A DNA stretch of 26,332 bases from Candidatus Vampirococcus lugosii (GTDB lineage Bacteria > Patescibacteriota > Gracilibacteria > Absconditabacterales > Absconditicoccaceae). Location of the stretch: assembly GCF_018420025.1 (NCBI RefSeq), contig NZ_JAEDAM010000004.1:1-26332 (forward strand), read 5' to 3'. Numbering within the stretch: the first letter of the stretch is position 1; every line of letters begins with the position of its first letter. The position numbers and the translations under genes are program-made. Under the pieces are notes generated by a model. The model made no database searches. It saw only the letters and a program-made list of their open reading frames with translations, and had not been told where the DNA came from. This document shows positions 43 to 22,077 of this stretch, piece by piece.

Positions 43-1083
43 ATGAAAAAGAAAAAACTACTATTTGTAATAACTTGATTTAAAAAATGATGAGCTGAAA
101 GACAAATGCTCAATCTTTTAAATTGAATAAAAAATGATTTTGAAATACAAGTTGTATGATTTTTTGATGGATATTATAAAAAAGAGATAGAAAACTTATG
201 AATAAAAGTTCATCTTATAAAACTTAAATCAAATCTATGAATCTTTAAAGCAGTTTATAAAGTAAATAAGATAACCAAAAACTTTAAACCTGATACAATC
301 CAATCAATGCTTCCTCATGCAAATATAGTCTGTAAACTTGTAAATGCTATAAATTTTAATAAATATACTATTTTTACTTGAATAAGAAATTCTAGGGAAC
401 CAAAACTTTTAGAAATACTTGAAAAAATTACTGATAGATCTTCAAATAAGATAATTACAAATTCTATTACAAACAAAAATGCTCTTATAAAAAGATGATT
501 TGAAGATAATAAAATACAAGTAATCTATAATTGAATAAATTTTCAAGAACCAAAAGAAAAATATCATTATGATAAAAAAACTATACTTACAGTTTGAAAA
601 TTTTATCCTCAAAAAGATTATGAAACAAATGTATTAGTAGTAGAAAAACTTTCACAAAAAAGGGGTGATTTTCAATTTTTATATGCATGAGTTTGACCAG
701 AAAAAGAAAAAATAGCAAATTTAGTGAAAGAAAAAAATCTAGATAATTTTATAAAATTTTTATGAGTAAGAGATGATATTCCTGAACTTATGAATAGTGC
801 AGACTTATTTTTCTTACCTACAAAATTTGAATGACAAGCAAATGTAATACTTGAAGCTATGTATTATAATCTCCCTATCTTAACAACAGATATACCTGAA
901 AATACTGAAGTTTGTGAAGCTTTGTTTTGAGAAGTTGGTGATATAAATTTTTTTGCTGAAAAAATAAATGAGTTTTTAGATAATAAAATTGATTTTAAAG
1001 AGAAAATCATTATTAACAAAGAAAGTATACAAAATTTTACTGTTGATAAGATGGTGAATGAATATTTAAAGTTTTATAAGTAA
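43..1083 (+). CDS. Glycosyltransferase family 4 (GT-B fold, Glycos_transf_1-like)
   Basis: ATG at 43 follows in-frame TAA/TAG at 28-33. The frame runs 346 codons to TAA 1081-1083 with TGA=Gly. N-terminus is MKKKKLLFVITGFKKGGAERQMLNLL, where both Gly of GGAE are TGA (88-93). The C-terminal E-x7-E region reads FFLPTKFEGQANVILEAM. Confidence 0.85.
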
Positions 1084-1088
1084 ATAGT

Positions 1089-1904
1089 ATGAAAATAAAA
1101 GACATTTTATATAAATCAGGTATTTTAATACCATTTTATATAAAAAATAATATAATAAGAGTTGTTTTAAGAATAAAATATTCTCCTTTATTTTTAGAAA
1201 AAATAAAAAATTGAAAATTGTATTCCAAAATTTTATCAACAATAAATGTTTGATGATTTTTTAAAACTGTTGCATATAAAAGACATATAATATGAGATAA
1301 AGAAATTGAAAAAATAATTTGAAAAAATAATAAAAAAATAAAATTTGCAGATGTATGATGTTCAGACGGATCAGCAAGTATAAACTTATATGAACATATG
1401 CAAAATAATTTTGAAAAATATGATTTATTTGATTATTATAATTACTTAAAATATATAAACTATTGACCTATAAAATTATTTTTAAATAAAGATAATTATC
1501 TTGTATATTTTCAGTTTTTATTTATATTGATATACATAAACAAAAAAATAAATTGAAAATTAAATAATCAAAAATATATTAAATTTTGGAATCCTGATTT
1601 AAAAAAACATTGACTGAAAATAAATGAATTTAATATTATAACTGATGTATTAGAAATTGAATATGATATAGTTAAATGTGCTAATTTATTACATTTTAAC
1701 TATTTTAAAAAAGAAGATATATTAAATATTGTAAACAATAAAATGTTACAATATGTTAAAAAATGATGATATCTAGTTTTGATTCATAATAATAGTAAAT
1801 ATCAAGATAATGAGGCTGTGCTTATTCTTAGAAAAAATGAAAAATGAGAATTTGAGATATATAAAAATATAAATAATTATGAAATAATTAGTTTGTTTAA
1901 ATAA
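1089..1904 (+). CDS. Class I SAM-dependent methyltransferase-like protein
   Basis: ATG at 1089 lies 5 nt after the previous stop. The 271-codon frame was checked triplet by triplet and has no TAA/TAG. Motif I-like KFADVGCSDGSASI (about 1344-1382) and a later KKGGYLVLIHN strand are present. Family assignment rests on motifs only. Confidence 0.55.
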
Positions 1905-1912
1905 AAAAGATT

Positions 1913-2587
1913 ATGAAAAAAATTATAATAGAGCTTACTTGATTACAAGGATCTTGAAAAACATCAATAATTAATGCTTTAAATCCCAAATATGAAAAAA
2001 ATGTTTTTTATTGTGAAATTTTTAACAAAAATTATAATAATTTGAAAATTTATAAAAAATTTATAATAAGATTATTTTCTATATTGAAAAATATTAAAAT
2101 AAATTGGAAAATATTTAAATTTAGTCTTTCTTTTGAAAAAAGATTAATAGTTTTTAATAAATTATCATATTCTATATATAAAATTAATTATATAAATAAA
2201 TATTATAAATCAAAAATTATTATAACAGATGAATTATTTTTACATTCTATTTTTAGTTCTTTGTTTTTATATGAAAATAAAATAAATAAAACTAAAATTG
2301 AAAAGTTTTTAAAAAACATTATATTAAATAAAATTCAACCTATATATATTGATGTAAAATATGATGAACAAATAATTAACACAAAAAAAAGAAATATCTT
2401 TAAATTATATGACAATTTACAAGATGAAGAAAAAAAAGAATTATTAGTAAAAAAATGAAATTTATCAGAATTTATAACAAATAAATATTGTGAAATTTAT
2501 AATAGACCATTTTTAAAAGTTCCTTCACTATCTTTAAAAGAAAAAATACACAAAGTTGAGGAATATATTGATTTAATAATTAAATAA
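1913..2587 (+). CDS. P-loop NTPase / kinase-fold protein of unknown function
   Basis: The 224-codon frame contains the standard-code ORF 2042-2458 as an internal fragment. N-terminal Walker A is MKKIIIELTGLQGSGKTSIINAL, with two Gly encoded by TGA. The rest is Lys/Ile/Asn-rich with no other recognisable motif. Confidence 0.5.
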
Positions 2588-2594
2588 ATACACT

Positions 2595-3290
2595 ATGAAA
2601 AAAGTTCTAAATTATATAAGACAAATTATGTTTTATATAGATGCAAAAATGTTAAATTATTTTAAATTTAAAAATTGAAGAATAACAGAATTTGAATATA
2701 AATTAAGAAAAAAGTTTTTAAAAAAAATAAATCAGTTTTGAGTCTATGATTTTTATCAAAGTTATCCTCCTTTGATGATAACTTGAGTTAGACCAACAGC
2801 TTCAAGATTTTGAAATTATTGATTAGAAAATTATCTAAGTAAAGAAAAAGAGGTTTTAGATATTTGAGGGAATATAAGTTTTTTTTCAGCTTATACTTCA
2901 AGATTTGTAAAAAATATTGATGTTGTTGAATATGAGTGAAATTTATGTGATATATGAAATGAATTATTAGGATTTGAAAATATACAAAATGTTAAAATCC
3001 ATAATGTTGATTTTAAAAAATATAAAACAGACAAAAAGTATGATGTAGTTTTTTCATTTGCTATACATATGTGGGTATGACTAAGTATTGAAAAATATTT
3101 AGAACAAATTTATAATTTAATGAAAAATAATTGAATTTTAGTTTTAGAAAGTCATACTTTTTATCAAAACAAATCTGATAGTTTAGATAATCATATTAAA
3201 AAATTTGGAAAATTTGATATAATTAAAAAATGAATTAGTGATGATCAATGATGAAATTATAGAGAGTTTTTTATTTTAAGTAAAAAATAA
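2595..3290 (+). CDS. Class I SAM-dependent methyltransferase
   Basis: The 231-codon frame was checked for stops. Motif I is EVLDIGGNISFF (GG = TGA GGG). Motif II/III-like YDVVFSFAIHMWVG and NGILVLESH are present. Confidence 0.75.
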
Positions 3291-3293
3291 TAT

Positions 3294-4421
3294 ATGTTGA
3301 ACATTTTTTATCCTGTTGAAGTTTTTGTAGTAAATTGAAAAAAATATACAAGAAGTGCTTGGGTTGTAAATTGATATTGAAAATACTTCAATAAAGTAAA
3401 TTTTTATGCCAATATATTTTATGTAAATAATATTGATACAAATAAATTTCAAGAAATTGATTCAAATATTGCATTAATTAATTTTTTTGACAAATGAATA
3501 GATTTCAAATCTTTTATTAAAAATATATGATATTATAAAAATAAAATTAAAAAAATAAATGATGATGAACTATTTTTTATATTATATCCTTATAAGTTTA
3601 TTTGATTTTTATTATGATTAATATTAAGAAATAAAAAACTTATAATTAGAGTTGTTAGTGACCCTATCCAACAATTTACAATTCATTGAAATAAATTTCA
3701 AAGATTTATAAGAAAATTATTAAAACCTTTTGTTTATATTATTTATGAATGAATTTCAAGATTTATATTTCAAGATAACTTAATTTTTTATACTGCAAAT
3801 ATAACAACTAATAAAAAAAATCATATAAATCAAATTGAAATAATTTCTTGCTCAAATTTTAATGAAGATAAAGCACTTATAAACAATAAAATAACAAAAA
3901 AAATTTCTTTTGTATGATGAGAGATAAATAGAAAGTGATTAAATGTATTATTGAAAGCATTAAATCATACAAATCATAATGTAGAATTGAATATTATTTG
4001 AATGGATAAACTACAAAGAAAAGAAAATATAAAATTAGCTCAAAATTTGAATATTAAATTTCATGGTAAAATATACAAAAGAGATGTGTTTTATAAAAAA
4101 CTTGCTCAAAGTGATATACTTGTTATGCCAAGTTTTGGAGAAAAACAATGAAAAACTCAACTTGAAGCTATGAGTGTAGGAGTGGTTCCTATATGTGCTG
4201 ATGGAGGTTGAACTTATAGAACAATAGATAATTATTATAATGGTTTATTATTCAAACAACTTGATTGGAAAGCTTTGGCAAAAAATATTGATATGCTATA
4301 TAATAAACCTGAATTGTATGAGGATTTGAAACAAAATGCACTTGAATATATACAAGAATTATCTTTGGAAAAACAAGTAAAGAAGATGAGTAAAACTATA
4401 AATAATTTTTATAATTTATAA
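3294..4421 (+). CDS. Glycosyltransferase family 4
   Basis: The 375-codon frame was checked for stops. The C-terminal GT4 signature is DILVMPSFGEKQGKTQLEAMSVGVVPICADGGG (E-x7-E). It starts 3 nt after the previous stop. Confidence 0.8.
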
Positions 4422-4430
4422 ATAATAAAA

Positions 4431-5300
4431 ATGAATATAATTAAAAAAAATTTTTCAAGGTTATATATGGCTTATGATACAATTTTTAATACAAAAGTAA
4501 TAGAATGATGAAAATTTAATTGGATAAAATTAAAATCTTTATCATATATGCCTATTATTTTACCTTTTTTGAAAGAAAAAATAAATAACTTTCTATCCAG
4601 AAAAGAAAGAAAAAATTATATAATACAAAATAAAGTTGCCAAGTTTTTTCTATACAATAATGATGATACTTTATGAAAAAGCTCACAATATTTTGAACAT
4701 CACTTACAACATTTTTTGGATGATACAGAAAATAAAAAACTTTTTGTAGATATATGAACAAATATTGGTTTTTATACTCTGTATGCAATAAATAAAAAAT
4801 GATTTCAAAAATCTATTTGTTTTGAGGCAAATCCTGATACCTTCAAAGTATTAAATAAAAATATTGAATTAAATAATTTAGATAAAAATGTGGATTTAAA
4901 AAATTTTTGATTATGAGATAAAGAAGATAAATTAACTTTCTTACAAAACAAAACTCATACTTGATGAAGTAAATTTATATCTTCAGAAGAAAAATCAAAT
5001 TACACTTGAGAAAATTACAATATTATAGATGTAAATATTAAAAAGTTTGATGATATTATTAGTAATAAAAATATTGATATAAATGATATTTGATTTATAA
5101 AAATGGATGTAGAATGATTTGAATACAATGTTTTAATATGAATGAAAGAAACTTTAACAAAATTAAATAAATGAACAAAGTTATTTATAGAAATATGGTG
5201 AAAACATCCAAAACTTGAGGAAACAAAAAAGTTTATACAAGATAATTGATTTGTATTAAAAGAGAATATTTGAAGTAATTATTTATATATTAAAAAATAA
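4431..5300 (+). CDS. FkbM-family methyltransferase
   Basis: The 289-codon frame was checked for stops. Motifs are LFVDIGTNIGFYTLYA (SAM-binding motif I) and IGFIKMDVEGFEYNVLIGM (the KxDVEGxE motif typical of FkbM methyltransferases). Confidence 0.8.
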
Positions 5301-5302
5301 TA

Positions 5303-6265
5303 ATGCCAAAACCAAATTTTTTTATAATATGAGAACCTAAATGCTGAACAACTATACTTCATAATTATCTTTCTAATCATAAAGATATTTTTATGTCTAA
5401 AACGAAGGAGCCTCATTATTTTAATACAGACCATCATCAAGAAGCTATTCAGTTAAATTGAGAAGGTAAAACAAAAAATAGTATTTTTAGATATATTAAT
5501 AAAGAAGATTACCTTTCATTATTTGAACAAGCTAATAAAGAACAAAAAATTATTTGAGAATCAAGTACAAATTATGCTTATAGTAAATTAGCAGCAAAAG
5601 AAATATATAATTTTAATCACAATCCTAAATTATTGTTTTGTATTAGAGAACCTTTAAGCTTTTTACAAAGTTGGCATTCTCAAATATATAAAACTTGAAG
5701 TGAATTTATAGAAAATTTTGAAGAAGCTTTAATTTCTGAAAAAGATAGAAAAAAATGAAAAAAAATTTGAAAAAGAACTAAATATTCTTCATTACTTTAT
5801 TACTCAGAATGGATAAAATTTACAGAACACTTACAAAGATACTTAGATTATTTCCCAAAAGAACAAATAAAAGTAGTCATATATGAAGAATTTAAAAAAG
5901 ATAATCAAAAAACTATAGATGAGATTACAGATTTCTTGTGAGTTGATAGAATGAAAATAGATTATAAACAAGCTAATATAACTCCTAAAACAAAATTAAC
6001 AAAATTTTTAAAATCTAAAAACATATTTAGAAGATTTTTTTGAAAAATTTTACCTTTATCTTTTAGAAAAAAATGGTGAATTTTTGTTGATTATATAGAT
6101 TCAAAAATTGATAAAAAAACAAATACATTAAGTCTTGATGCAAAAACAAAACTTATGAAACAATTTAAACCAGAGGTAGAGAAAATAAATGATTTACTTC
6201 ATAAACATAATCTTATAGATCCAGAGATTGATTTAGTAAAATATTGGTGATATGATAAAGTTTAA
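5303..6265 (+). CDS. Sulfotransferase (PAPS-dependent, Sulfotransfer_1-like)
   Basis: The 320-codon frame was checked for stops. The 5'-PSB loop is PNFFIIGEPKCGTTILHNYL. The 3'-PB-like segment is LLFCIREPLSFLQSWHSQ. Confidence 0.8.
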
Positions 6266-6287
6266 ATATTAATATAAATAATACAAT

Positions 6288-7184
6288 ATGGACAAAGTAA
6301 AAGTTATTTATACAGTTTGATACTGACATAGTGGCTCTAGTTTGATTAATGCTATTTTATGATGAGCTAATGATAGTATAGCAGTTTCAGAATTGATAAA
6401 ACTATGACATAGAATAAGAAAATTATGAAATAGTAAAATATTAAGTAATAGATGAAAATGTCAATGATGCAGAGAAAATATTTATAATTGTAAATTATGG
6501 TCTCAAGTATTAAAAGAAGTTCCAAAAGATAATATATATTTTCAAAATGAAAATTTTTTAGATAATTTAAAAATTAGCTTAAATATATTATTTTGATTTC
6601 CAAAAATAAATTTTAATAATTTAGATGATACTAAACTATATAATTCCATTATAAAAAATTCTAATAAAATATATGATAAAAATATAAATACTGTTGTAGA
6701 TTCTTCTAAAGACCCAAGAAGATTAAAATATTTACAAAAAAATCCTAATATAGACTTATATGTAATTTACCTTACAAGGGATCTAAGATGAGTAAGCAAC
6801 TCTATGGAAAAAAGATGAAAAAACTTTTGAAGAACTTATATTATATGGCATATATGGAATATATTATCTTATATAACATATAAAAAACATAATAAAAATA
6901 AAAAAATAATGATAAGTTATGATAAATTTACTCAAAATCCAGATAAATATTTAAAAAGAATAAAAGATAAATTTAATATTGATTTAAATATGGAAGATTA
7001 TCTTGATAATGCTAATAAACAAGAAATACACTATATATGATGAAATAGTATGCAAAAAAAAGATATTACTGAAATCAAATATGACCAATCTTGGAAAAAA
7101 AGAATGCCAAAATGGAAACAATTTATTCTTAATATGATTTGCTATATTCCAAATAAAATTTGGGTTTATAATAAAAAGTTATAA
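6288..7184 (+). CDS. Sulfotransferase-family protein (second, divergent)
   Basis: The 298-codon frame was checked for stops. The P-loop-like PAPS site is VIYTVGYGHSGSSLINAI. A later VDSSKDPRRLKYL...VIYLTRDLRGVSNS resembles the RDPR..S motif of bacterial sulfotransferases. Confidence 0.65.
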
Positions 7185-7195
7185 CTTACTACCCT

Positions 7196-7244
7196 TTCCT
7201 TATCTTTACAACTTCTTTTTAAAGTTTTAGTAAACTTTTATAGT
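7196..7244. repeat. wzx-tail repeat, copy A (decayed relic)
   Basis: Sequence TTCCTTATCTTTACAACTTCTTTTTAAAGTTTTAGTAAACTTTTATAGT has 3 mismatches over 49 nt to copy C (10114-10162). On the minus strand it reads YKSLLKL*KEVVKIRKG*, so the flippase tail is broken by a stop. Confidence 0.85.
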
Positions 7245-7338
7245 CAACTTTCTATCAAGGACTTAATTAAAAATACTTGATTTTTTATCAATATTGTTTA
7301 TAATGTTTTTAATTTAATTAGATAATTACTTATTATTT

Positions 7339-8594
7339 ATGTTAATAAAAAGATTGATTTTTGATGAAATTCAAAAAGTATTGGATACAAACAAAATAAT
7401 AATATTAAGATGACCAAGACAAGTTGGTAAAACCACTATAATGAAAGACTTACAAACAACTTTCAAAAGTCAGAAAACTGTGTTTTTGGATATGGATGAC
7501 CTTGATATAAAAGAAAAGATAAAGACAGCTTGAAACTTGATAAATTATATAAAATTTGAATACTCATATCAAGAAAATGAAGATATTGTTATATTTTTAG
7601 ATGAATTTCAAAATATAGAAAATGCAGGTGTTTTTCTTAAAAATATATATGATAAATATTCAAATATAAAGTTAATTTGTAGTTGATCCTCAAGTTTGGA
7701 AATAACAAAAAATATTGAACATCTTACAGGTAGAAAAATAGTGTTTGACATTACTCCATTTACTTTCAAGGAATATCTAAAAGCAAGAAAATTTAAAAAT
7801 TATAATATAAAGTTTAATATAAATAACTTTAATGAAATAAATGATTTTTATAATATTTATCAAAATGAGCTAGAAAATTTTTTAAAAGAATATCTAACTA
7901 TATGATGATATCCTGAAATTGTTTTGACTACTTGAAACATTAGAAAAAATATAGCAAAAGATATTACAAAACATATATTCAAAAAGATATAACATCATTT
8001 TTACATATAGAGAATATACAAGCTTTTAATAATTTGCTTAAAATAATTTCTTCTCAAATTTGAAGTTTGTTAAACAAATCAGAACTAAATGCTACTTTAT
8101 GAATATCAATAAATACTTTAAAAAAATATCTTAATATACTTGAATGAACTTTCATAATAAACATATTAAATCCTTTTTATAAAAATGTAAGGAAAGAGCT
8201 TAGCAAAATGCCAAAAATTTATTTTAATGATATGTGAATTAGAAATTATTTACTTTACTGAAACCTTGAAGAACTTCCAACTGCTAATATATGAGAATTG
8301 GTAGAGAATTTTGTTTATAATGAATTAAAATTAAAAGATAATAATTGAATAAATTTTTATAGAACTATATCCAAAGCAGAAATAGATTTTATATTTCAAA
8401 AATCATTTGATAAAATTATACCTATGGAAGTAAAGTATAGAAATAAAGTAAATGTCCCTGAAATTATGCAAAATTTTAGTAAAAACTATTCAAGTAAAAT
8501 AGATAAAAAAATAATTATTACAAAGAATAAATTAGAAATAAAAGAAGATGTTTATCTTATACCAGCTTGTTTGGTAAGTTTTATAAACCTTTAG
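7339..8594 (+). pseudogene. AAA+ ATPase with DUF4143 / PD-(D/E)xK-like C-terminal domain, disrupted by a 1-nt frameshift
   Basis: Frame 1 (7339-7992) encodes MLIKRLIFDEIQKVLDTNKIIILRGPRQVGKTT (Walker A), FLDEFQ (Walker B) and TIGGYPEIV, then stops at 7990-7992. Frame 0 continues from about 7971 with YIQKDITSFLHIENIQAFNNLLKIISSQIGSLLN...MPKIYFNDMGIRN...AEIDFIFQ...PMEVKY to TAG 8592-8594. The total of 1256 nt is not a multiple of 3. One extra A in the run at 7968-7971 would restore a 418-aa protein. Confidence 0.8.
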
Positions 8595-8597
8595 CTT

Positions 8598-8641
8598 TTC
8601 CTTATCTTAACAACTTCTTTTTTAAGTTTTAGTAAAGTTTT
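8598..8641. repeat. wzx-tail repeat, copy B (relic)
   Basis: Sequence TTCCTTATCTTAACAACTTCTTTTTTAAGTTTTAGTAAAGTTTT has 2 mismatches over 44 nt to copy C. The minus strand reads KTLLKLKKEVVKIRKS* with no gene body upstream. Confidence 0.85.
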
Positions 8642-8757: not shown

Positions 8758-10110
8758 ATGGAACTTAAAAGAAATATATATCAAGAATTGACAAACTGGA
8801 GTAAAAAGAAAAATAAAAAGCCTCTTATCTTGAAAGGTGCAAGACAAGTATGAAAATCTTTTGTTATAGAACATTTTGCAAAACATAATAATATAAACAT
8901 ACATAAGATAAACTTTCAATCTCAAAAAGATGCTTTTTATATATTTGATTGAAATCAAGATGCCAATACTATATTAACCAAGATTGAGTATTTTTTAGAT
9001 ACAAGTATAGATATAGACAATGATTTATTATTTTTTGATGAGATACAGGAATATCCTAAAGCTATAAATTCACTTAAATTTTTACAAGAAGAAAAACCAG
9101 AACTTAAAGTTATAGCAGCTTGAAGTTATCTTTGAATTATGAAAAATCAAGAATCTTTCCCGGTATGAAAAGTTGAATATCTTTCTATGTTTCCACTTAC
9201 TTTTGAAGAATTTTTACAAGCAATCGATAAAAAACTTTATGATTTTTATAATACTATAGATGTGGATAATATGAAAGTTATAGATACTTTTTTTCATCAA
9301 AAATTGCTTGATAAGTTTTATTTGTATTTGGCTATATGATGAATGCCTGAAGTTGTTTTGTCTTTTATAGAACATGTAAAAGATAATTCTTTATATGAAA
9401 CTTTAAATATAGTTAGAAAAAAACAAGAACAGCTTCTTGAATCATATAAATCAGATTTTTCTAAGCATGCATGAATAGTAAATTCAAGTCATATACTAAA
9501 TGTTTTTGAAGCAATTTCTATACAATTATCAAAAGCAGATTATGAAGAAACCAACAAGTTTAAATTTACTTGAGTTATACCAAATCAAAAAGGTTATGAT
9601 AGGATAGTATGACCACTTACTTGGTTATCAAAAGCAAGACTTGCTATACAAAGTTTTATCATATCAGATACTAAACAACCTTTAAAGGCAGAAGTTCAAA
9701 AAAATAAGTTTAAAGTATTTATGCATGATATATGACTTTTAAATGCTGAATTATCTACTCCTATACATTCATTATTAAATATAAAAAGTTCTTTATGATC
9801 ATATAAATGATATATTATAGAAAATTTTATAGCTTGTGAATTATTTTCAATTACTGATAAACATCTATTTACCTGGACTAGATGAAAATCAGAGATAGAG
9901 TTTATATTTGAGAAAAAAACACATCTAATACCCATAGAAGCTAAATCATCAGATAAATCAAGGAAAGCTAAAAGTTTACTCTCTTTTATAAAAAGATATA
10001 ATCCTACATATGCATATAAGTTTACAGCACAAAACTATTGAAATAAAAATTGATTTGAAACTATTCCTTTATATTTAATTTGAAAAATATTTAAAGAAAG
10101 AAAGTATTAA
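8758..10110 (+). CDS. AAA+ ATPase with DUF4143 / PD-(D/E)xK-like C-terminal domain (intact paralogue)
   Basis: The frame has 450 codons. Motifs are PLILKGARQVGKSF (Walker A, Gly=TGA), LLFFDEIQ (Walker B), LAIGGMPEVV, FMHDIGLLN and SEIEFIFEK...IPIEAKS (nuclease-like E-x-E/D...E-x-K). It matches the 7339-8594 gene only at family motifs. Confidence 0.85.
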
Positions 10111-11642
10111 TTTTTCCTTATCTTAACAACTTCTTTTTTTAGTTTTAGTAAACTTTTATAGTTTATGATCAAAAATCATAATCAAAATATAGCAAAAGCT
10201 ATCATCAAGTACAATAAATTTTCATACCTTGCACTATTTGTATATTCAAAAAAAATTCATTTCAAACTATATAGTATAAGTCATACTATCAAAAAATAAA
10301 CTATATTTCAAAATAAAAATCACCTATAAAGTATGATAGGGTTTTTCTTATATATGTAGATAAATGAAAATAAAAACATCATAAACCAAGCTATGATACT
10401 TGATATAACTGCTCCATATACTCATATAAAAGGTATCAAAGCTCCATTTATAAGGATATTTACAAGTGCAGCAAAAGCTATTATCTTTACTCTATTTTTT
10501 GGTTTTCCATAAGCATTTATCACTACAAAATTGAACTGAAATAAAACTTTTAGAACCAAAAATAAAGCTATAAACTGTAAAAGTATACCAGAAAGTAAAA
10601 AATGATCACCAAATAATACTATAGATACTATATCTCAAAATAATAAGAAAAATACTCAAAGTGCAAAAAATATAATTCAAAAATAATTATAATATATGTT
10701 TTGTAATATCTTAATTTTAAAATTTTCTTTTTTTTCTATAAGCTCTGTGATGATAGGCAAGAAAAGTTGCATGATAGGTCATATAAACATTCATTGTATC
10801 ATAAACAAACTTTTAAAATTTGTATAATATCCTGCACTTTCTGTTCAAGCAAGGAACAAAACCATCTGTAAATCTATCTGTCACATAACAACTCATGCTT
10901 GACCTCAAAGTAATGCCCATAATCCATAACTATGAAAACTTTTTAAAGTATCTTTATTGTATGATATATCTATCTTTTGAAGTTTAACCTTTTTTAAAGC
11001 TTTTATATATAAAAATATACAAGAAAGTACAAAAGCTATAACTCATCAAAGTATCCAAGTAAGAAAATAATTTTCTATACTACCATTTTCAAAAAGAAAA
11101 AAACTTAATGTAAAAGCAAATATAAGCCACATTCTTATAGCATTTGAAAATCTTTGATAGAATATTTCTTGAAAAGAATTTAATATATTATTTACAAGAC
11201 CATATAAATTTAAAAGTATAAAATAAGCTATAATATAGTATATAAAAGTTTTACTAGCATAAGAATCAAGATATATGTTTGATATCACATCTGCTCAAAA
11301 GTATATAAGTAAAGATATGATAATAGAAAAAAATATTTGAAAAATGATAGTATATCATATCAAAAATCAAACTTTTTTATCTTCACCTTTAGCAAGAAAC
11401 TTAGGTATAAAATAATTTAAAGCTCACTTATTTCAAAGATCTCAATATATTACAAGTATACTTACAAGTCAAAGAAGTGAATATATAATTCAAATATCTG
11501 AAACTCATAGATCATTTGAAAGTATAGTTCTTATAAGATATCAAGTAGGAGCTATGATAAAAGCAAAAAAGTATAACCAAAATCATTTAGTTAATAATTT
11601 CTTTGCAAGTGTTTCTTCCTTGAAAAGTTGATTATCTTTCAT
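10107..11642 (-). CDS. wzx: MOP-superfamily oligosaccharide flippase (Wzx / polysaccharide biosynthesis protein)
   Basis: The 511-codon minus-strand frame was checked triplet by triplet for TAA/TAG. It contains track ORF 11046-11288 in frame. The protein is hydrophobic with many helix-length segments. The N-terminus MKDNQLFKEETLAKKLLTKGFWLYFFAFIIAPTGYLIRTILSNDLGVSDIG is typical of Wzx/PST proteins. It sits beside the glycan locus. Its stop codon (complement of 10107-10109) overlaps the ATPase stop at 10108-10110. Confidence 0.75.
10114..10162. repeat. wzx-tail repeat, copy C (functional 3' end of the flippase gene)
   Basis: Sequence is TTCCTTATCTTAACAACTTCTTTTTTTAGTTTTAGTAAACTTTTATAGT. On the minus strand it encodes the last residues NYKSLLKLKKEVVKIRKN* of the 10107-11642 ORF. 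Confidence 0.85.
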
Positions 11643-11675
11643 TTATATTTGATTTTTTTAGGTAAATAATAAGTT
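11642..11675. repeat. 34-bp direct repeat, copy 1 (immediately upstream of the wzx start codon)
   Basis: TTTATATTTGATTTTTTTAGGTAAATAATAAGTT is identical to 12953-12986. Position 11642 is the A of the wzx ATG on the minus strand. Confidence 0.9.
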
Positions 11676-11725
11676 AAGAAAAATTAATTTTCATATTTAT
11701 TAAATTTATAAGTTCTTGAATTAAA

Positions 11726-12337
11726 TTATTTTTTACAAAAGTTTTTTTGGTCTTGAGTTAAAACTTCTCATAGTCAATCAAGTATCTTATAGTTTTTAGG
11801 TGATTTTTCTAATTTTTCTCTTATTTGTATGAGTGCTTTTTTGTATGTTTTTCAAGTTCTTTCTTCTATAACTTTCTCATTTACATCAAAAAGATTTTTA
11901 AAGAAAAAGTATATATCATATATATCTCTATTTGCATTTCTTTCAATAAAAGAAACAAGTTTATTTGCAAATATAGTTGATTTATCTTGTACTTTTATAT
12001 CTGTTCCATAAAAATTTACTATTTCATATTTATTATTTTTCCAAATTTTCCTGTTTATATCTATTTTTATATTTACATCATATTCTCAGTAAGAAAGCAA
12101 TATATTATGACCTTTTTTAACTTTTCAGTATTTTTTTAATATATCTACCATCTCCTCATCTACTTGCTCAAAGTCTTCCAAAAGATCAAAATCTAAATCT
12201 GTAGAAAATCTATCTAATCAATATAAAAAATAACAAGCAGTTCATCATTTAAAAGCCAAGTATTTACCAAGTTTTGATGAAAAAATATCCTTTAATATTA
12301 AAAACATAATTTGTCTATGTTTATCAGTATTAAGCAT
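11726..12337 (-). CDS. abiEii: AbiEii/AbiGii-family nucleotidyltransferase toxin (type IV TA, DUF1814)
   Basis: The 203-codon frame was checked for stops. The N-terminus MLNTDKHRQIMFLILKDIFSSKLGKYLAFKGGTACYFLYGLDRFSTDLDFDL carries the KGGTA...R.S.DLDF nucleotidyltransferase signature of AbiEii. It overlaps the upstream gene by 8 nt (ATGCTTAA). Confidence 0.8.
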
Positions 12338-12890
12338 TGTTTAGTATTTTTTTAATTTCTAAAATAACTCTTTTATTGTATATCAAACTTATCTTTTCTA
12401 ATTTATCTTTATCTATATCTTCTAAATTATCAAAATAATAGTTTGCTGATAAATATAACCTATCACAGATAGCTCTTTCCTTGCTTGCTATCATATAGTT
12501 TCATTTGTTTATAATTCATATAGGATTTAAAAGAATATCTTTTTTTAGGTTTAAGTATCTAAAATTAACTCCTAAAAACTGTTTTGTAATAGTATTATCA
12601 CTTGCAAGAAATATAGTGTCTTGATAATCTTGAAATATAATTCATTCTTTTTTAAGAACTGTTTCAAAGCTAATATATGAATTTTTTTTAAGTTTTGTTG
12701 AAAGTTCAAGTTTGTTATATTTTTTTAATGTATATATTCATTTAGTTATATAGTCAAAAATACCGTTTTTTACTCATCTTGAAAAAAAACTTTTTATAGT
12801 TTCTTTATTTTCTATTCATACAATATTTTTTATATCATTGTATGTAAAAACTGTCTTTCAAGATCAGATTATTTTATCTATATTTTTCAT
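12330..12890 (-). CDS. abiEi: AbiEi-like antitoxin / transcriptional regulator
   Basis: The 186-codon frame was checked for stops and is translationally coupled to abiEii. The N-terminal wHTH-like segment is FTYNDIKNIVGIENKETIKSFFSRGVKNGIFDYITKGIY. The C-terminal SKERAICDRLY is as in AbiEi_4-type antitoxins. Position and size fit the family. Motif evidence is moderate. Confidence 0.65.
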
Positions 12891-12903
12891 ATATCATCTC
12901 ATA

Positions 12904-12927
12904 AGGTTTAAATCTAAACCTATTATA
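12904..12927 (-). promoter_or_regulatory. Candidate abiE promoter -10 box with overlapping inverted-repeat operator
   Basis: The minus strand reads TATAAT (complement of 12922-12927), followed directly by AGGTTTA-GATT-TAAACCT. This is a perfect 7-bp inverted repeat (plus 12904-12910 / 12915-12921), 14-31 nt upstream of the abiEi ATG. AbiEi proteins are known to autoregulate through inverted repeats. The AT-rich background makes chance matches likely. Confidence 0.35.
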
Positions 12928-12952
12928 ATGAAATTATGTAAAAATCAATATT

Positions 12953-12986
12953 TTTATATTTGATTTTTTTAGGTAAATAATAAGTT
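12953..12986. repeat. 34-bp direct repeat, copy 2 (upstream of the abiE operon)
   Basis: Identical to 11642-11675. It lies 63 nt upstream of the abiEi start. Confidence 0.9.
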
Positions 12987-13127
12987 TCAATGTATCTATA
13001 TCATATATTATATATAATTTTTTATTCAAATTACTGAAAAGATTTTAGTTTTTTATGATGAATAGCTATAAAATATTTATTTTTTGTAATATTTTGTTTT
13101 TGCATATTAAAAAAATATTTAAAATTT

Positions 13128-15206
13128 TTACAAAATTCATGTATACCAGTGAATATCTTTTATTATTTGTTTTTCAAATGCTCATGGTGCATAATATACA
13201 TATATATGATCAAAAGATATTTTACTTGACATAAGATTTAATAAAAATTCAAATCATCAAACTACTATTTTTTTATTTTTTATTTGAGAATAGTAAATAT
13301 TTTTACCAACTCATCAAGTAATATTTTCAAATAATAATTCATAATTAAGATTATAGTTATTATTTAATAAATATTCAAAAAGTTCTTTAGATTTATTTTT
13401 ATTGACACAAAGTATAAATATATTATTATGTTTTGATATATTATCAATTATTTTATTTTTATCATTTTGTTTAGATAATTTAATATTACTATAAGATTTA
13501 TCACCTCATATTGAATAAAATCATTCTTTAGTATTATTTGAAAAAAATACAACTTCATTTTTATCAAAAAAATCCATAAATTCTTGATAATTAATTAAAT
13601 TATTTGTTCTATAAAATGTAAAATAAAATTTATTTTCATCATACATCATTTTTTTTATCAAACAAATATTATTGAATATATCGTCCATATCATCAAAAAA
13701 ATCTACAATACAATCTCTATCTTCATTTTCTAATTTTTCTGAAATAACAAGTAAATCTTCTCTCAGAGAATTAAAAAGTTTATTTGATAAATAAAAATCA
13801 ATATTTCATTTGATATAATCAATTTCTACTATATCTTTTGAAATTCAAATAAATTGTTTTGTTATTTCTTTGAAAAGAATACCAGTAAATATAATAAATT
13901 TAGTATAAAATTTATTTAATTCATATATATCAAGTCATTTAATTTCATATTTATATATAAAAAATTCAAGTTTATAAATAACAAAATATAGATCAAATGG
14001 TTTATTTAAATATTTTGATAAACTATTGTACCAAGTATCCCGATCAAAAAAATAAATTTTGTAATCAGATATATTTTTATTTTTTATAAATTCAAATAAA
14101 TTATAATGATTTGCTAGAACTATATCAGATAATTTTTTATCAATTCACTTTTGCAAAAAATTAGAAATTTTGAAATCATTTGCCAAAGATAAATCCAAAA
14201 ATCAATGTCATTTATCATATTGACTAAAATACTTTATTAAAAAATTAATTTCAAAAAAATTAAAATTATCTTTTCATAAAAATAAATTTGTATTTTCTTT
14301 ATCAAAAATAGAATTATTTCCCAAATATCAAATATTTTTTACTCATAAATTTGATAATAAAGTTTTTGCAATTTTAAGTTTTGATGGATTTTGAAAACAA
14401 ATAATTCATTTTTTATTTGTTGTTGCTATATCATACAAAACTTTTTTGAAAGATTCATCTCATACATAAAATTTATCTCAATCTTTTGATTTAGAAATTG
14501 TATTATCAGGTCATTTATTTATAATTTTGGAATTAACAGCTACTTCTTTTTTTAATCAAGGTAAAAAATAATTTGATTTATCTACATAATAATCATCTTT
14601 TATATCAAATATTTGATTATAAATACTTTCTGATCTTAAAATACAATTTTTTAAAATAGGAAATTTATTTGACAAATTTCAAAATCTTTCAACAAAAAAT
14701 TTAAAAATATTATAAGATGCCAAGCTATCTGTCAAAGCATCATGATAGTCTCAATCAATAATTATATTATATTCTTTTTTTAAAATTTCACTTATAATTT
14801 CCAAAGAATAACTCGGTAAAAAATGAAATATACTATGCGACAAATGAAAAGTATCCAAAGTTTTAACAAAAGATAAATCCATATATTTTGATAAAATATT
14901 TATATCAAACATAATATTATGTCAAATAATAACAGTATTTTTATCAAAATATTTTGAAATTTGCTTCAGAATATCTTGTATATACGGTGCATCTTGCAAA
15001 TCATTAACATTAATATTAGTTACGAATTTTACAATATTTTTTAAATCTAAACTGTTTGATTGTGGTTTTATATAAGATTTATATTTTTCTAATATATTAA
15101 AATTATTATCAAATTTTACTATTCATATTTGAATGGGTTCATCTTTTTTGATATCTAATCAAGTTGTTTCTAGATCTAGAGATATATAATTTAAATTTTT
15201 AAGCAT
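13128..15206 (-). CDS. dinG: DnaQ-type DEDDh 3'-5' exonuclease domain fused to a degenerate DinG-like helicase region
   Basis: The 692-codon frame was checked triplet by triplet. Exo I is ISLDLETTGL, Exo II is IIGHNIMFDINIL and Exo III is YHDALTDSLA, all in the first ~170 aa. The long C-terminal region has DinG-like end segments (VVGGFEFLLNL...YVYYAPGAF). I could not find a GxGKS/T Walker A. Confidence 0.7.
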
Positions 15207-17790: not shown

Positions 17791-17978
17791 TATTAAAAAA
17801 ATAATTAATAATCTCATTATTTTATATACAAATAAATTAATTTTATCAAGTTTACAAATTTTTGTAATACTGACAAATATTATTAAATAAACAATTTTTG
17901 CATTTAGGATTTTTTGCAAGACATTGATATCTACCAAAAAATATAAACAATTGATGAGCTTTATTTTTTCTGTTATTA
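17791..17978. repeat. 188-bp perfect direct repeat, copy 1 (orphan nth 3' end plus 61 bp downstream)
   Basis: Identical base for base to 21890-22077 by manual comparison of the full strings. On the minus strand it encodes NNRKNKAHQLFIFFGRYQCLAKNPKCKNCLFNNICQYYKNL* but is preceded by an in-frame stop (complement of 17984-17986). It is therefore a gene fragment, not a gene. Confidence 0.95.
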
Positions 17979-18165: not shown

Positions 18166-20472
18166 TTATTCAAATAATTTTGGAGATTGTCAAATATGAT
18201 ATTTTACAATAAAATTTTCTGCATAACCAGATGTTGTATGTCATTTATTTCAAGTTCTAAATTTGTTTAAATCATACATTAATGATTTATGATAATTACC
18301 AGTTTTTTTTCATCAAGGTAATTTATAAGTACCAGCTTCTCATATAGATCATCAAATTGTATTCCTAGTATATAACCTTCATTCAAGTATTAATTGTTTA
18401 TCTAATCAAGTTGTTCTTTCATATGAGTCAGTATAATTACTAAATCAAATAGCATCATCCCATATACTTATGAAACCTCAATCTCAATATATATATGCAT
18501 TTATTTTTTTTACATCATTTTTTATAAAGATATTTCATAAATGATCGTCATCATAATGATCTCTAATTAAAACTATTCATTTCATATCAACAATATCACT
18601 ATCAATTATTAAATTTCAATTTTTAATTACTATTGTTGACACATCTGATAAATCATAAATATTTGATATATCGTCTTCATATACTATATCATCATTATTA
18701 TTAATATCTAAATATAGTATTCAATTATTTTTTTGTTCATGAACCATTCATCTTATAGACTTTAATACATTACTTTTAAATTTATTTCTAAATTCAGATG
18801 TAGAAATACTAGAAAAATTTCTTTGCTGATTTGTTATTTTTTGATTTCAAATAGCTTGTGAATATCAAATTATCCTAATTCAAGAATAACTTGAATCATC
18901 TAGTGTTACTTTCCTATCATCTGGTTCAATTCAATCAGATAAATAATATCTAACTGTATTTCAATCTAAATCATATAAAACATATGGATCTGATTCTATA
19001 CTTACATTATTTATAAATTGATCTGTACCAGTATAATTTAAAATAAATTGTAATTCTGATTTTCAATCACTTAACATGTTATTAAATCAAGTTGTATACT
19101 GTATATAATATCAATTACTTGATGAAGTTAATGTATCTAAATTTTCAGTTTTTAAACCACTTTCTCAACTCAATCCAGATAAAGATTCTTTTTTTGGAGT
19201 TAATATTAATTTTTGTTGATTTCATATTATAAATCACATTGGATCCACATTCAATTCTCAAATATATGGTTTCAAAAAACTATAACGAACTGAAGAGACT
19301 GTCATCTTCGTTCATCATAAATTAAATCATATATCTCAACTATTTGATTTAAACGGTGATCTTGATTTAATTCAAGTCATAGGCACTGAAAAAGATTTAG
19401 CAGTAGAAGTAGGTATTCAAGAAGATGAAACAGTACCAAAATTTAAAGCAGTTCAAGAATTATTTATTCTATCAGAATTTTCTCAAGATTCATCCTCTAT
19501 ATTTGTAATAGATCTTGTTCAAGGTGTTCGTTTAATTCATTTATTTTGTTTAGTAGAAGCTGATATATTAAGACTAACTTCACATGAAGAAGAATTATCA
19601 GCATATATATTATTACATGTAGAAGATGGTGTATTTAAAGCATTTATAGTTATAGTAGCTGGAGGTGTAGTAGGCTTAGGTGCATCAGGAGGACACGAAG
19701 AAGTATTACATGGTCAACAACTTGTACTACAATTTCAGTCATCATCACAAGATTCTTTACAAGTTTGACTTCAACAAGATGATCTATTAGCAGTAAAAGA
19801 AGGAGCTTGAATACACTTTATTTTTCAATCATTAGACCATGATCAAGTAACTTCACAAATAGACCAATGTGTACTCCATGATGCTATATAACTACTACAT
19901 GCAGATGTAGTTGTTGTTACTGTTAAATCTGGATCTGGATCTGGGTCTCAATCTGGATCTGGATCTGGGTCTCAATCTGGATCTGGATCTGGGTCTCAAT
20001 CTGGATCTGGATCTGGGTTTCAATCTGGATCTGGATCTGGGTCTCAATCTGGAGCTGGATCTGGGTCTCAATCTGGAGCTGGATCTGGGTCTCAATCTGG
20101 ATCTGGATCTGGGTCTCAATCTGGAGCTGGGTCTGGAGCTGGTTCTGGAGCTGGGTCTGGAGCTGGTTCTGGATCTACCACTCTAGCACTAGCTCAATTA
20201 TGACAAGCTACGGAATTTTCATCTCTATCAACCTTAGCATGATCTAGTCACCCCTCTTCAATTGCATCAAACAGTTCATCTACAGTTTCAAAAGTTGTAG
20301 CATGATTAGACCATTCATCAAGTTGTTGCTGATTACCTCATCAAACAATAACTTTTGTTCAATCTCCAATAGTAACTTCTTTTTCAAGATTTCCTAATAC
20401 TAAAGGGTTTCATAAAATAGAACTTAAAGATATAAAAACAATTATAAACATTTTATATAATATTTTTTTCAT
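18166..20472 (-). CDS. Secreted protein with an acidic Pro/Asp tandem-repeat linker, a Cys-rich module and a large C-terminal domain of unknown function
   Basis: All triplets of the 768-codon frame were checked and show no TAA/TAG. The signal-peptide-like N-terminus is MKKILYKMFIIVFISLSSILG. It contains (DPDPDPDG)x8 plus PAPD/PAPE units. The Cys-rich stretch reads SACSSYIASWSTHWSICEV...CGSQTCKESCDDDGNCSTSCGPCNTSSCPP. About 480 aa then follow that I could not assign to a family. Confidence 0.8.
19927..20175. repeat. Coding tandem repeat: 8 x 24 bp followed by degenerate 12-bp units
   Basis: The plus-strand unit ATCTGGATCTGGATCTGGGTCTCA repeats at 19927, 19951, 19975, 19999, 20023, 20047, 20071 and 20095, with a few A/G/C variants. 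AGCTGGGTCTGG/AGCTGGTTCTGG units then run to 20175. In the gene frame each 24-bp unit encodes DPDPDPDG with the Gly as TGA. Confidence 0.95.
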
Positions 20473-20481
20473 TTTTTAATT

Positions 20482-21699
20482 TTAATTATTAAATTTTAAA
20501 TCTGCTACATAATCATCAACTCATTTAACATTTCAAAACAATCAATAATTATTTCTTTTTAATTCATTATCAACAAAGATATCCCAATAATAATATTTAT
20601 TCATATTATTAAATAAATAATTCATATCCGTTTCTTTATCTTTTTTAAGTACTTCAAATACTGTAAAAAACATAATAGTGCTTCTAATTTTATTTTTTCT
20701 TAACTCTCTTTGATTATCCATAAGTATAATATCATTATCTACAACACTTAATCATTTATTCATATAATTAACAGCTAATTCAAAGTCTCAAAAATTATAT
20801 TCAACAAGTCATTTATAATAATATGCTTCATATCAATTAGGATTTAAATCAATACTTTTATCTAAATAATCATTTATTTCTTCATATAAAGAAGAATCAT
20901 TTTTCATATATAATCATCTAGCAACTCATAAATATCACATAGGATAATTTTTATTATAATTTATTGATTCTTTAGCATATTCAATAGATTTTTCTATATC
21001 TGGATTTAATTGATTAACATTTAATACTATACTACTCAAAGAATAATAAATTTCAGATTTTAAACTATTACTATTAGTATCTAAAGATTTTTTAAAATAT
21101 TTAATAGATTCTTTATATTTTCAATTCCTAGCTAAATATCTTCATATATTTCAAGATGCCTCATGATTATTATCTATATCATAAGATTTATGATAATATT
21201 TATATCATAATTTTCTATCTCACATAATATCATATACATGTCATATCTGATTCAAAAGTATAGCTGCTTCATTTTCGGAAAGATTATCCAAATTTAATGC
21301 TTTATTATAAAAATTAATTGCTAATTCATATTCTTTTATAATTTCATTTGCAAATCATTTATAATACAAAACATTAAAACTATCTTCCTTATCTTCCAAA
21401 AGATCTAATACTATAGATGAATATTTATTCTCTTCATACTTATAGACTCATTCTTGCAAATAAGAATGTAAAAGTTGATCAAATTCTGCACTATCTAAAT
21501 TATCAACTCATTTTTCAGTATAATAAGTAATTACTGTTTCATAATTTCATAACTCAATCATTTTACTTATATCTACATTATTTTCTTTATTATTAAACTC
21601 TTCATCATTAAACTCATCTTTGTTAAAAAATAAAAAATAAAATACTAGTAAAAATGAAAAAGAAAAAATTAGTAAAAATAAATATTTTTTTTGATACAT
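20482..21699 (-). CDS. Tetratricopeptide-repeat protein with N-terminal membrane anchor
   Basis: The 405-codon frame was translated row by row. The N-terminal hydrophobic segment is MYQKKYLFLLIFSFSFLLVFYFLFF. Repeated TPR-like units follow, such as YYKGFANEIIKEYELAINFYNKAL, GHVYDIMGDRKLGYKYYHKSY, RYLARNGKYKESIKYFKKSL, YLGVARGLYMKNDSSLYEEINDYLDKSIDLNP and AYYYKGLVEYNFGDFELAVNYMNKGL. The stop lies 9 nt before the next gene's start. Confidence 0.75.
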
Positions 21700-21889: not shown

Positions 21890-22077
21890 TATTAAAAAAA
21901 TAATTAATAATCTCATTATTTTATATACAAATAAATTAATTTTATCAAGTTTACAAATTTTTGTAATACTGACAAATATTATTAAATAAACAATTTTTGC
22001 ATTTAGGATTTTTTGCAAGACATTGATATCTACCAAAAAATATAAACAATTGATGAGCTTTATTTTTTCTGTTATTA
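21890..22077. repeat. 188-bp perfect direct repeat, copy 2 (true 3' end of nth plus 61 bp downstream)
   Basis: Identical to 17791-17978 and contiguous with the rest of the nth reading frame. Confidence 0.95.

Follow-up and report, generated by a model that had tools for sequence, protein, structure and literature searches.

The locus described here raises the question of how a toxin-antitoxin (TA) module of the AbiE type came to lie between two identical copies of a 34-bp sequence, directly upstream of a flippase gene. The window, by which we mean the whole analysed stretch of 26,332 nucleotides (nt), belongs to contig NZ_JAEDAM010000004.1 (hereafter C93) of Candidatus Vampirococcus lugosii, a very small bacterium that lives as a predator. 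The source genome is assembled into 102 contigs of 1.26 Mb in all, and the window has a G+C content of about 20%. We consider it probable that a horizontally mobile AbiE cassette of 1277 bp was inserted in front of the flippase gene with long target duplication, in which a stretch of local DNA much longer than the stagger of a transposase would have ended up flanking the insert on both sides. Because the local DNA is present on both sides of such an insert, the neighbouring gene stays intact.

The 34-bp sequence TTTATATTTGATTTTTTTAGGTAAATAATAAGTT was found by a search of the window on the plus strand at 11642-11675 and 12953-12986, with no mismatch in either place, as the preliminary description of the locus had reported. 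The genes concerned lie on the minus strand, and the two copies are treated below as minus-strand features, the copy at 12953-12986 being the outer (upstream) one and the copy at 11642-11675 the inner (downstream) one. Read along the minus strand, the order is the stop of an exonuclease-fusion gene (13128), 141 nt of intergenic DNA (12987-13127), the outer 34-mer, 50 nt of promoter, abiEi, abiEii, the inner 34-mer and the flippase ATG. The outer copy therefore stands between the exonuclease-gene stop and the cassette promoter. The inner copy is the entire spacer between the ancestral abiEii stop, TAA 11674-11676, which it overlaps by two bases, and the flippase ATG; its last base, 11642, is the A of that ATG, as had also been described. 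Identity between the two copies stops exactly at both edges of the 34-mer. No further site with up to three mismatches was found in the window, and none of 100 dinucleotide shuffles gave a match. In the whole assembly of 1,255,885 bp, with three mismatches allowed, these two are the only copies, and an exact scan of 185,579 species-representative genomes did not find the 34-mer. The total of two copies in the genome rules out a dispersed intergenic repeat. The 34-mer would have been present as a single copy before the insertion.

Several other identities of the 34-mer were considered. It had been taken for the leader of the flippase gene (wzx), but it is missing before the flippase gene in 20 relatives, and it is therefore no general leader; among the relatives, only the genome G142, discussed below, carries the 34-mer. 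The two strands of the 34-mer fold with -0.2 and 0 kcal/mol, no better than shuffled sequences, and neither a hairpin nor dyad symmetry is present, which speaks against an attC-like or dif-like site. A known RNA family was rejected since no Rfam family matched the 34-mer leader. Promoter-like consensus matches around the locus, including the 34-mer and the 141-bp intergenic stretch, numbered 17, as compared with 20.2 expected from shuffles. This intergenic stretch, which presumably lay upstream of the flippase gene before the insertion, showed no similarity to the cassette or to the 3' end of abiEii. A stacking model, in which a decayed older cassette precedes the outer copy of the window, was dropped since no similarity was found.

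The 1277 bp between the 34-mers are filled completely by abiEi, abiEii and the 50-bp promoter. This content, given in the preliminary description, was confirmed by the PADLOC and Pfam assignments and by the analysis of the promoter. Under translation table 11 the window contains short open reading frames only; with TGA as a sense codon, long genes appear, with up to 59 TGA codons each. Since the invariant Gly-Gly of nucleotidyltransferase (NTase) motif I in abiEii is encoded by TGA-TGA, TGA is read as glycine (table 25). Table 25, an AbiEii-AbiEi system and ComEC, ComEA and type IV pili have been reported for V. lugosii (PMC8080830), so that the presence of AbiE in this organism had been listed before. 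The earlier identification of the two genes as abiEi and abiEii holds, and they are readable with this code only.

The abiEi gene (12330-12890, minus strand) encodes an antitoxin and transcriptional repressor of 186 amino acids (aa). Its product is matched by the PADLOC AbiEi model (PDLC02255, 1.2e-38) over residues 9-188, and a comparison with Pfam gave no match at E ≤0.01. The conserved start is ATG 12888-12890, and members of the family have 186-187 aa, most often 186. The start previously placed at 12902 is an in-frame ATG that would lengthen AbiEi by four codons; G142 lacks this upstream ATG. The abiEii gene (11674-12337, minus strand) encodes a DUF1814 nucleotidyltransferase toxin, with matches to PF08843 (3.5e-19; 70 bits as against a cut-off of 22.5) and to the PADLOC AbiEii model (3.2e-46). 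The two genes overlap by 8 nt (12330-12337), and the antitoxin gene comes first. Motifs I-IV of AbiEii, for which PMC3985639 gives hGG, DhD preceded by an R, a KLxAaxxR-like stretch and +DxxD, are visible in the translation as FKGGT, RFSTDLDFD (with DLDFD), KLVSFIER and RDIYD. With a DUF1814/AbiEii toxin that carries motifs I-IV and an overlapping upstream gene for an AbiEi/COG5340 antitoxin, the cassette is, by its sequence, a bona fide AbiE module, of the type IV class of TA and abortive-infection systems and of putative activity. In the AbiE systems studied so far, the toxin is a bacteriostatic, GTP-binding NTase, the antitoxin does not interact with it and also represses the operon, and the systems give phage resistance and stabilise plasmids (PMC3985639).

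The promoter/operator block (12903-12952, minus strand) consists of a -35-like TTGATT (12943-12948), a -10 TATAAT (12922-12927) and, immediately past the latter, the palindrome AGGTTTA-gatt-TAAACCT (7+7 bp, 12904-12921). The layout of -35, -10 and palindrome is kept in the cassettes of G142, G154, G125, G130 and P0043, which are 55-96% identical, and in these five the palindrome keeps its position and, for the most part, its sequence. Conservation among distant cassettes ends 2-5 nt upstream of the -35. AbiEi of Streptococcus agalactiae and the repressor Rv2827c bind inverted repeats in their own promoters (PMC3985639, PMC7319586). By analogy, the palindrome at 12904-12921 is likely to be the AbiEi operator. 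The module resembles AbiE of S. agalactiae and Lactococcus (PMC3985639) and Rv2827c/Rv2826c of Mycobacterium tuberculosis (PMC7319586) in being bicistronic and overlapping with the antitoxin first, and shares with the studied AbiE systems a DUF1814 NTase toxin with motifs I-IV, a COG5340-type antitoxin and an inverted repeat in the promoter region. It differs in that its proteins are shorter (186 and about 219 aa), the toxin gene is frameshifted near its C-terminus, and the candidate operator is one 7+7 bp palindrome after the -10 instead of two 23-bp inverted repeats.

An imperfect palindrome, AAAAATCAAATAT-AAAA-ATATTGATTTTT, spans the junction of the outer 34-mer and the cassette at 12940-12968, overlapping the -35. 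Its ΔG is -6 kcal/mol (z = -2.2), a value reached by 5 of 200 shuffles. G142 does not have this palindrome, which is therefore probably a side effect of the junction. A role of the 34-mer as part of the AbiEi operator is unsupported, as the palindrome that straddles its edge is absent in G142 and the conserved palindrome lies inside the cassette.

As annotated, abiEii encodes 203 aa and stops at TAA 11726-11728, owing to an extra A in an A7 run at 11742-11748, where abiEii of G142 has A6. All 12 abiEii homologues examined encode 218-234 aa and end in the conserved block QK.FVKNNLI.ELI..I.MK..F. The corresponding C-terminus of the window's protein, FVKNNLIQELINLINMKINFS, is intact in the +1 frame up to TAA 11674-11676. 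The stop at 11726 assumed in the preliminary description is thus the product of a +1 frameshift, and the 50-bp tail that was placed after it is coding sequence in the ancestral frame. Either the gene is truly frameshifted or the homopolymer base call is wrong. NTase motifs I-IV all lie upstream of the frameshift, which replaces the last 22 or so residues of AbiEii; because of this replacement, addiction or defence activity in this strain may be reduced or lost. The idea that the module stabilises the neighbouring DNA is weakened by the frameshift in the toxin gene and is retained as a general possibility only. The first ATPase gene of the window is also split, into an AAA_14 part and a DUF4143 part (7339-7992 and 8034-8594). 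Together with abiEii, it makes two genes of the window that are interrupted at or close to a homopolymer, so that an error of amplification or sequencing has to be weighed against real decay.

The limits of the cassette and its horizontal transfer became apparent from the comparison with G142. This genome comes from a different genus. The products of its rpmA, mraY and galE genes have 73, 63 and 59% aa identity to those of the window's genome, its orthologue of the exonuclease is 31% identical and its flippase 37% identical (aa). G142 nevertheless carries the same cassette before its own flippase gene at 95-96.5% nt identity. Along the minus strand, the identity between the window and G142 is 52% beyond the outer 34-mer, 59% in the outer 34-mer, 92% in the promoter, 95% in abiEi, 96.5% in abiEii, 84% in the abiEii tail, 91% (30/33) in the inner 34-mer, 68% in nt 1-177 of the flippase gene and 52% in nt 178-340. 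The drop from 92% to 59% falls exactly at 12952/12953; the left end of the cassette is, to the base, the inner edge of the outer 34-mer. Because the cassettes are 95-96.5% identical while the core proteins are 59-73% identical, the cassette was exchanged horizontally long after the lineages split. The next-nearest AbiEi among 5.8 billion proteins is 70% identical.

A diverged duplicate (MTNNLLKYETLTEKLVKKGF...) of about 115-130 nt was observed in G142 between rpmA and a galE-like gene (L077 (G142:C17), 11436-11565), with a score of 100 as compared with a shuffle maximum of 50. It is made up of the leader, about 65 nt from the start of the flippase gene and a few bases from the end of abiEii; a 13-nt abiEii-like stretch before this remnant is not significant alone (61/500 shuffles). 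The duplicate shows repeated duplication at this gene start. On its 3' side, the flippase gene of G142 is accompanied by another, different AbiEi/AbiEii-like pair (L077 (G142:C17), 5976-7417), and the gene thus has AbiE modules on both sides.

Flanking duplications recur in at least seven further cassettes of the AbiE family. In 37 loci (about 27 distinct cassettes), the 350 nt preceding abiEi were compared with the 350 nt that follow abiEii, and mismatched upstream/downstream pairs served as the null; the 99th-percentile score of the null was 14, and the scores observed were 19-168. Duplications were found in this comparison around the cassettes of G125 (at least 177 bp, the 3' end of a convergent gene for 896 aa), G154 (51 bp, the last codons and stop at the 3' end of the upstream gene) and G014 (27 bp). 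The contexts of further homologues added P0064 (30 bp), P0059 (31 bp, exact), P0043 (25 bp) and P0084 (25 bp with 2 mismatches). The last of these consists of the leader and ATG of a downstream GT4 gene and is the closest parallel to the arrangement in the window. In all seven sister cassettes, a few bases lie between the upstream copy of the repeat and the -35, and no repeat is related in sequence to another. Including the window, the lengths in the eight cassettes are 25, 25, 27, 30, 31, 34, 51 and at least 177 bp. For arbitrary 1.3-kb units, the background was 0/692 windows in the relatives' loci and 9/2073 in the window's genome, that is, about 0.4% at most; these 9 windows fall in four regions, one of which is an ATPase cassette of the present window.

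A stacked arrangement was seen in L112 (a contig of GCA_003940745.1) at about 2000-4300. There, a PhdYeFM-type TA pair and an AbiE cassette are set apart by three copies of a terminator-like hairpin of 31 bp, AAAAAATCAAACTGTATAGTTTGATTTTTTT, and the copies also share some bases past the hairpin. Successive TA cassettes are thus stacked behind one duplicated sequence.

The manner of insertion was considered on the basis of these structures. No recombinase or transposase domain was found in the window genes scanned, and tyrosine recombinase genes (PF00589) are located on contigs C90, C18 and C92 only, with none on C93. There are no terminal inverted repeats that pair the two ends of the cassette. 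A fixed transposase stagger is ruled out because the duplications range from 25 to at least 177 bp. With neither a transposase gene nor terminal inverted repeats, and with a duplication of variable length, the cassette is not a transposon or insertion sequence (IS). It is, at 1277 bp, a complete gene system of less than 20 kb, bracketed by a repeat of more than 30 bp (34 bp) in low copy number (two copies in 1.26 Mb).

Long target duplication for restriction-modification (R-M) units is said to have been described in a paper of 2000 (Gene 259:99). It was described for such units by Furuta et al. (2010, PMC2853133) as well; the criteria given there are a repeat of more than 30 bp, an insert of less than 20 kb and no other mobile element, and naturally competent species provide most of the cases. 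The present locus resembles the R-M cases in several respects. The insert is a self-contained addiction or defence unit of less than 20 kb without transposase, integrase or inverted repeats; it is bracketed by a low-copy direct repeat of more than 30 bp made of local DNA, and the neighbouring genes are intact; the repeat differs in length from event to event (from 25 bp to at least 177 bp here, 26-65+ bp in the tables of Furuta et al.); and the hosts have DNA-uptake genes. Unlike the R-M cases, the cargo is an AbiE toxin-antitoxin pair and the host is a bacterium of the candidate phyla radiation (CPR) with TGA=Gly; the empty site with a single copy of the repeat, which is the defining comparison, was not found in the collections searched, and the repeat travels with the cassette in one relative. 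Our search of the literature found no report of long target duplication for AbiE, TA or Abi cassettes. Read in this way, the locus is a new example of a known, poorly understood insertion mode, with a new cargo and a new host.

The most likely route would start with DNA uptake by the ComEC/ComEA/type IV pilus system. The DNA would then have been integrated either by recombination anchored in homology, with an illegitimate junction at a microhomology falling inside the anchor, or, as a circularised unit, by a single crossover. The junction bases ATATAAA/AAT resemble the A-rich stretch before the -35 in other cassettes. Both modes are compatible with the data; like the direction of events, they are deduced from the present arrangement.

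Several observations weigh against an insertion with target duplication. First, no empty site was found in the flippase homologues, the 34-mer scan of 185,579 genomes or the synteny of 20 relatives, nor in metagenome contigs, AbiEi homologues or congeneric genomes; the metagenome contigs had no close cassettes, and none of the congeneric genomes had the locus. The comparison with dinG-wzx loci of relatives without the module, proposed in the preliminary description, accordingly yielded none among the 20 relatives and the congeneric genomes. Because of this lack of an empty site in the collections searched, we infer the duplication of the target rather than observe it; of the insertion proposed earlier, the discrete mobile cassette, its base-exact left end and the duplications around the sister cassettes stand as observations. 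Second, the 34-mer is missing before the flippase genes of the 20 other relatives, as mentioned above. Third, in G142 the 34-mer lies within the block of high identity, beside coding DNA of 68% identity, and for this reason it may be cargo and not target. Fourth, no significant copy of the 34-mer was found directly upstream of the G142 cassette; a degenerate outer 34-mer there was rejected, as 45 of 300 shuffles score equally, and the second leader copy of G142 is 2.5 kb away, beyond the galE-like gene. Fifth, the two copies in the window are identical though the arrangement is shared with G142 at about 5-9% divergence. About three differences would be expected between them, and we estimate the chance of finding none at about 0.05. 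Identical copies in an older arrangement require a recent event (re-insertion), gene conversion or selection.

There is another possible interpretation of the block shared with G142, namely that the 34-mer belongs to the mobile unit. The unit would then measure 1311 bp (cassette plus one 34-mer), would be excised as a circle between the two attL/attR-like copies, and would re-enter at a 34-mer copy or scar through one crossover that depends on RecA or on a recombinase supplied in trans. The block common to both genomes (91-96.5%) is exactly the cassette plus one 34-mer, 1311 bp, with sharp drops on both sides, as this interpretation requires. It is also in line with the 34-mer not being a general flippase leader, with the tyrosine recombinase genes elsewhere in the genome, and with the length of the repeat, about 34 bp being approximately the minimum for RecA-type exchange. 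The seven sister cassettes, however, have repeats that are unrelated in sequence and of 25 to at least 177 bp, several of them host-gene ends or terminators. Since their sequences and lengths are unrelated and several are host-gene ends, the sister repeats fit target-derived DNA and not a conserved att site. Moreover, neither dyad symmetry nor a hairpin is present in the 34-mer, the outer copy is missing from G142, and the genome contains no third copy or scar. We therefore regard a 34-mer carried by the element as unlikely and prefer the duplication of a target.

It is also conceivable that no insertion took place here. The second 34-mer could have arisen locally, for example by gene conversion or by a tandem duplication of cassette and leader after which one of the cassettes was deleted, or a regulatory element could keep the copies identical, in which case the 34-mer would couple the expression of abiE and the flippase gene. 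In favour of these possibilities are the complete identity of copies whose arrangement predates the split of the window and G142 cassettes, and the imperfect palindrome that the outer copy forms with the first cassette bases over the -35 (12940-12968); the diverged duplicate in G142 shows that duplication and deletion do occur at the locus. A local origin, however, demands a deletion that is base-exact at the left end of the cassette. Against the regulatory version, G142 does not have the junction palindrome, and the palindrome likely to serve as operator follows the -10 within the cassette. Shuffled sequences contain promoter-like matches at least as often as the 34-mer does, and there is no Rfam match. 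Neither version can be given much credence, and both together seem clearly less probable than a 34-mer carried by the element.

The published genome was assembled from DNA amplified by multiple displacement amplification (MDA) and MALBAC from samples of about 10 cells (PMC8080830), and it has to be asked whether the outer junction is an artefact of whole-genome amplification or assembly. Contig C47, which has an odd junction from the 3' part of the flippase gene to the inside of abiEi, points in that direction. The junction of cassette, leader and flippase gene, however, recurs in the independent genome G142, the contig is continuous over 26 kb, and a chimera is unlikely to give a clean, co-oriented insertion with an exact 34-bp repeat at the conserved terminus of the cassette. 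An artefact is thus highly improbable. C47 itself (6866 bp) is a variant of the glycan locus of about 92% identity and different gene content. At 6289-6866 it joins flippase position 10571 to abiEi position 12593 via a 3-bp microhomology, and it ends in 122 bp shared identically with the window as an assembly overlap. The contig could represent a deletion variant among the cells sampled or a chimera produced by MDA.

Returning to the insertion of a mobile cassette with target duplication, two further kinds of element invite comparison. Integron cassettes and CALINs (clusters of attC sites lacking integron-integrases) are likewise small accessory cassettes, often TA, that adjoin one another and are separated by repeated sequence. 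Unlike them, the cassette has no intI nearby and has its own promoter, and its repeats are identical local DNA and not a cassette-specific attC. As no attC-type palindrome and no PF00589 gene on C93 were found and the -35/-10 are its own and conserved, it is not an integron cassette. Elements that enter gene ends keep a functional gene start: SXT/R391 integrative and conjugative elements insert in the 5' end of prfC, and islands insert at the 3' ends of tRNA genes. As in those cases, the functional start is kept here, and the start region is found once more beyond the insert, the remnant in G142 including about 65 nt of flippase coding sequence. They differ, however, in encoding a site-specific recombinase and using one conserved att site; neither is present here, and the targets differ among the cassettes.

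The flippase gene (10107-11642, minus strand) encodes a flippase of the MOP family (Wzx-like, Polysacc_synt; PF01943, 5.7e-11), with a MurJ match below the cut-off, and its nearest homologue among 5.8e9 proteins is 40% identical. It forms the end of a glycan locus that encodes, at 43-7184, GT4 glycosyltransferases, methyltransferases and a sulfotransferase, and it lies directly downstream of the cassette in the same orientation. No terminator-like hairpin is present anywhere in 11400-13300, which agrees with the earlier failure to see one between abiEii and wzx, and the distance from the ancestral abiEii stop to the flippase ATG is 31 nt. Because of the co-orientation, the lack of a terminator and the 31-nt gap, read-through into the flippase gene is plausible. 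To judge from this arrangement of the sequence, the gene most likely shares its transcript with abiE, and also with whatever is transcribed from the 141-nt region upstream; its transcription would come from the AbiEi-repressed cassette promoter and from any promoter upstream. Of the earlier proposal, read-through from the abiE promoter is thus upheld as plausible. A separate promoter signal for the flippase gene in the repeat is not, since matches there are no commoner than in shuffles. The neighbour on the other side, named dinG in the preliminary description, has only an RNase_T-type exonuclease domain and is not beside the flippase gene in any relative.

A position near glycan genes is common in this family of cassettes. 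Among 13 contexts (L098, L104-L108, L112, L115, L078, L077 and the window), about 9 are at the edges of surface-glycan clusters, with genes for flippases, GT2/GT4, rml, epimerases or GtrA. The cassettes at such edges are usually co-oriented with the downstream glycan genes and often beside an AAA_14/DUF4143 ATPase gene; in L108 the cassette lies between two Polysacc_synt flippase genes. In L104-L107 (Logan SRR239508xx contigs) an AbiEi homologue of 191 aa occurs without abiEii (L104, 3001-3576), and in L104 the distance from the homologue to the rml/epimerase glycan genes downstream is 60 nt. This homologue may be an AbiEi-type regulator that was kept before glycan genes as an orphan.

A broader reading can be offered tentatively. 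AbiE cassettes of about 1.3 kb, with promoter, operator, antitoxin and toxin only, may form a class of minimal mobile units in Absconditabacteria and other competent bacteria with reduced genomes, entering without a recombinase of their own and preferring the upstream edges of glycan clusters. They would leave behind long target duplications of variable length. Their co-oriented, terminator-less landing would put glycan genes, such as this flippase gene, under an AbiEi-repressed promoter, and the duplications would be a substrate for later excision or exchange, as the 1311-bp block shared with G142 suggests. We consider this broader reading rather unlikely to be correct. As regards the gain and swapping of defence genes in tiny, recombination-poor CPR genomes, the locus and its sister examples indicate that an insertion mode described only for R-M units also moves TA and Abi cassettes. 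If this is true, annotation pipelines that seek mobility genes will miss a whole class of mobile defence cargo, and short duplicated gene ends would be a practical marker of recent acquisitions. Surface sugars often serve as phage receptors, and at this locus a surface-sugar gene may have its expression wired to the autoregulated promoter of a defence module. It is the family-wide recurrence and the repeated placement at glycan loci that raise the interest of a locus that is otherwise ordinary.

Other duplications were observed in the window and the genome. Three copies (about 90-95% identical) of the last ~48 bp of the flippase gene are found at 7195-7244, 8596-8641 and 10113-10162. They bracket two divergent AAA_14/DUF4143 ATPase genes (about 31% identical to each other), with one copy following each gene, and the real 3' end of the flippase gene shares a TTAA stop-to-stop overlap with the second ATPase gene. 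G142 has a remnant of the flippase tail (C17:4333-4608) beside its ATPase gene. An exact direct repeat of 188 bp, at 17791-17978 and 21890-22077, includes the 3' end of an nth-like (HhH-GPD) gene and brackets a two-gene unit, which encodes a TPR protein (20482-21699) and a protein of 768 aa with 59 TGA codons (18166-20472). The ATPase-gene and nth-end units are two more insertions in the window in the same style as the AbiE cassette. On contig C79, which carries a CRISPR array (534-2761, with the 36-bp repeat ATCTACAAAAGTAGAAATATTATACGAATTATAAAG) and a Cas12a-like gene (10470-12020), the first 49 bp of the Cas12a-like coding sequence are repeated 2083 bp upstream (11970-12018 and 14053-14101), and IS-transposase-like fragments lie between the two copies of the 49 bp.

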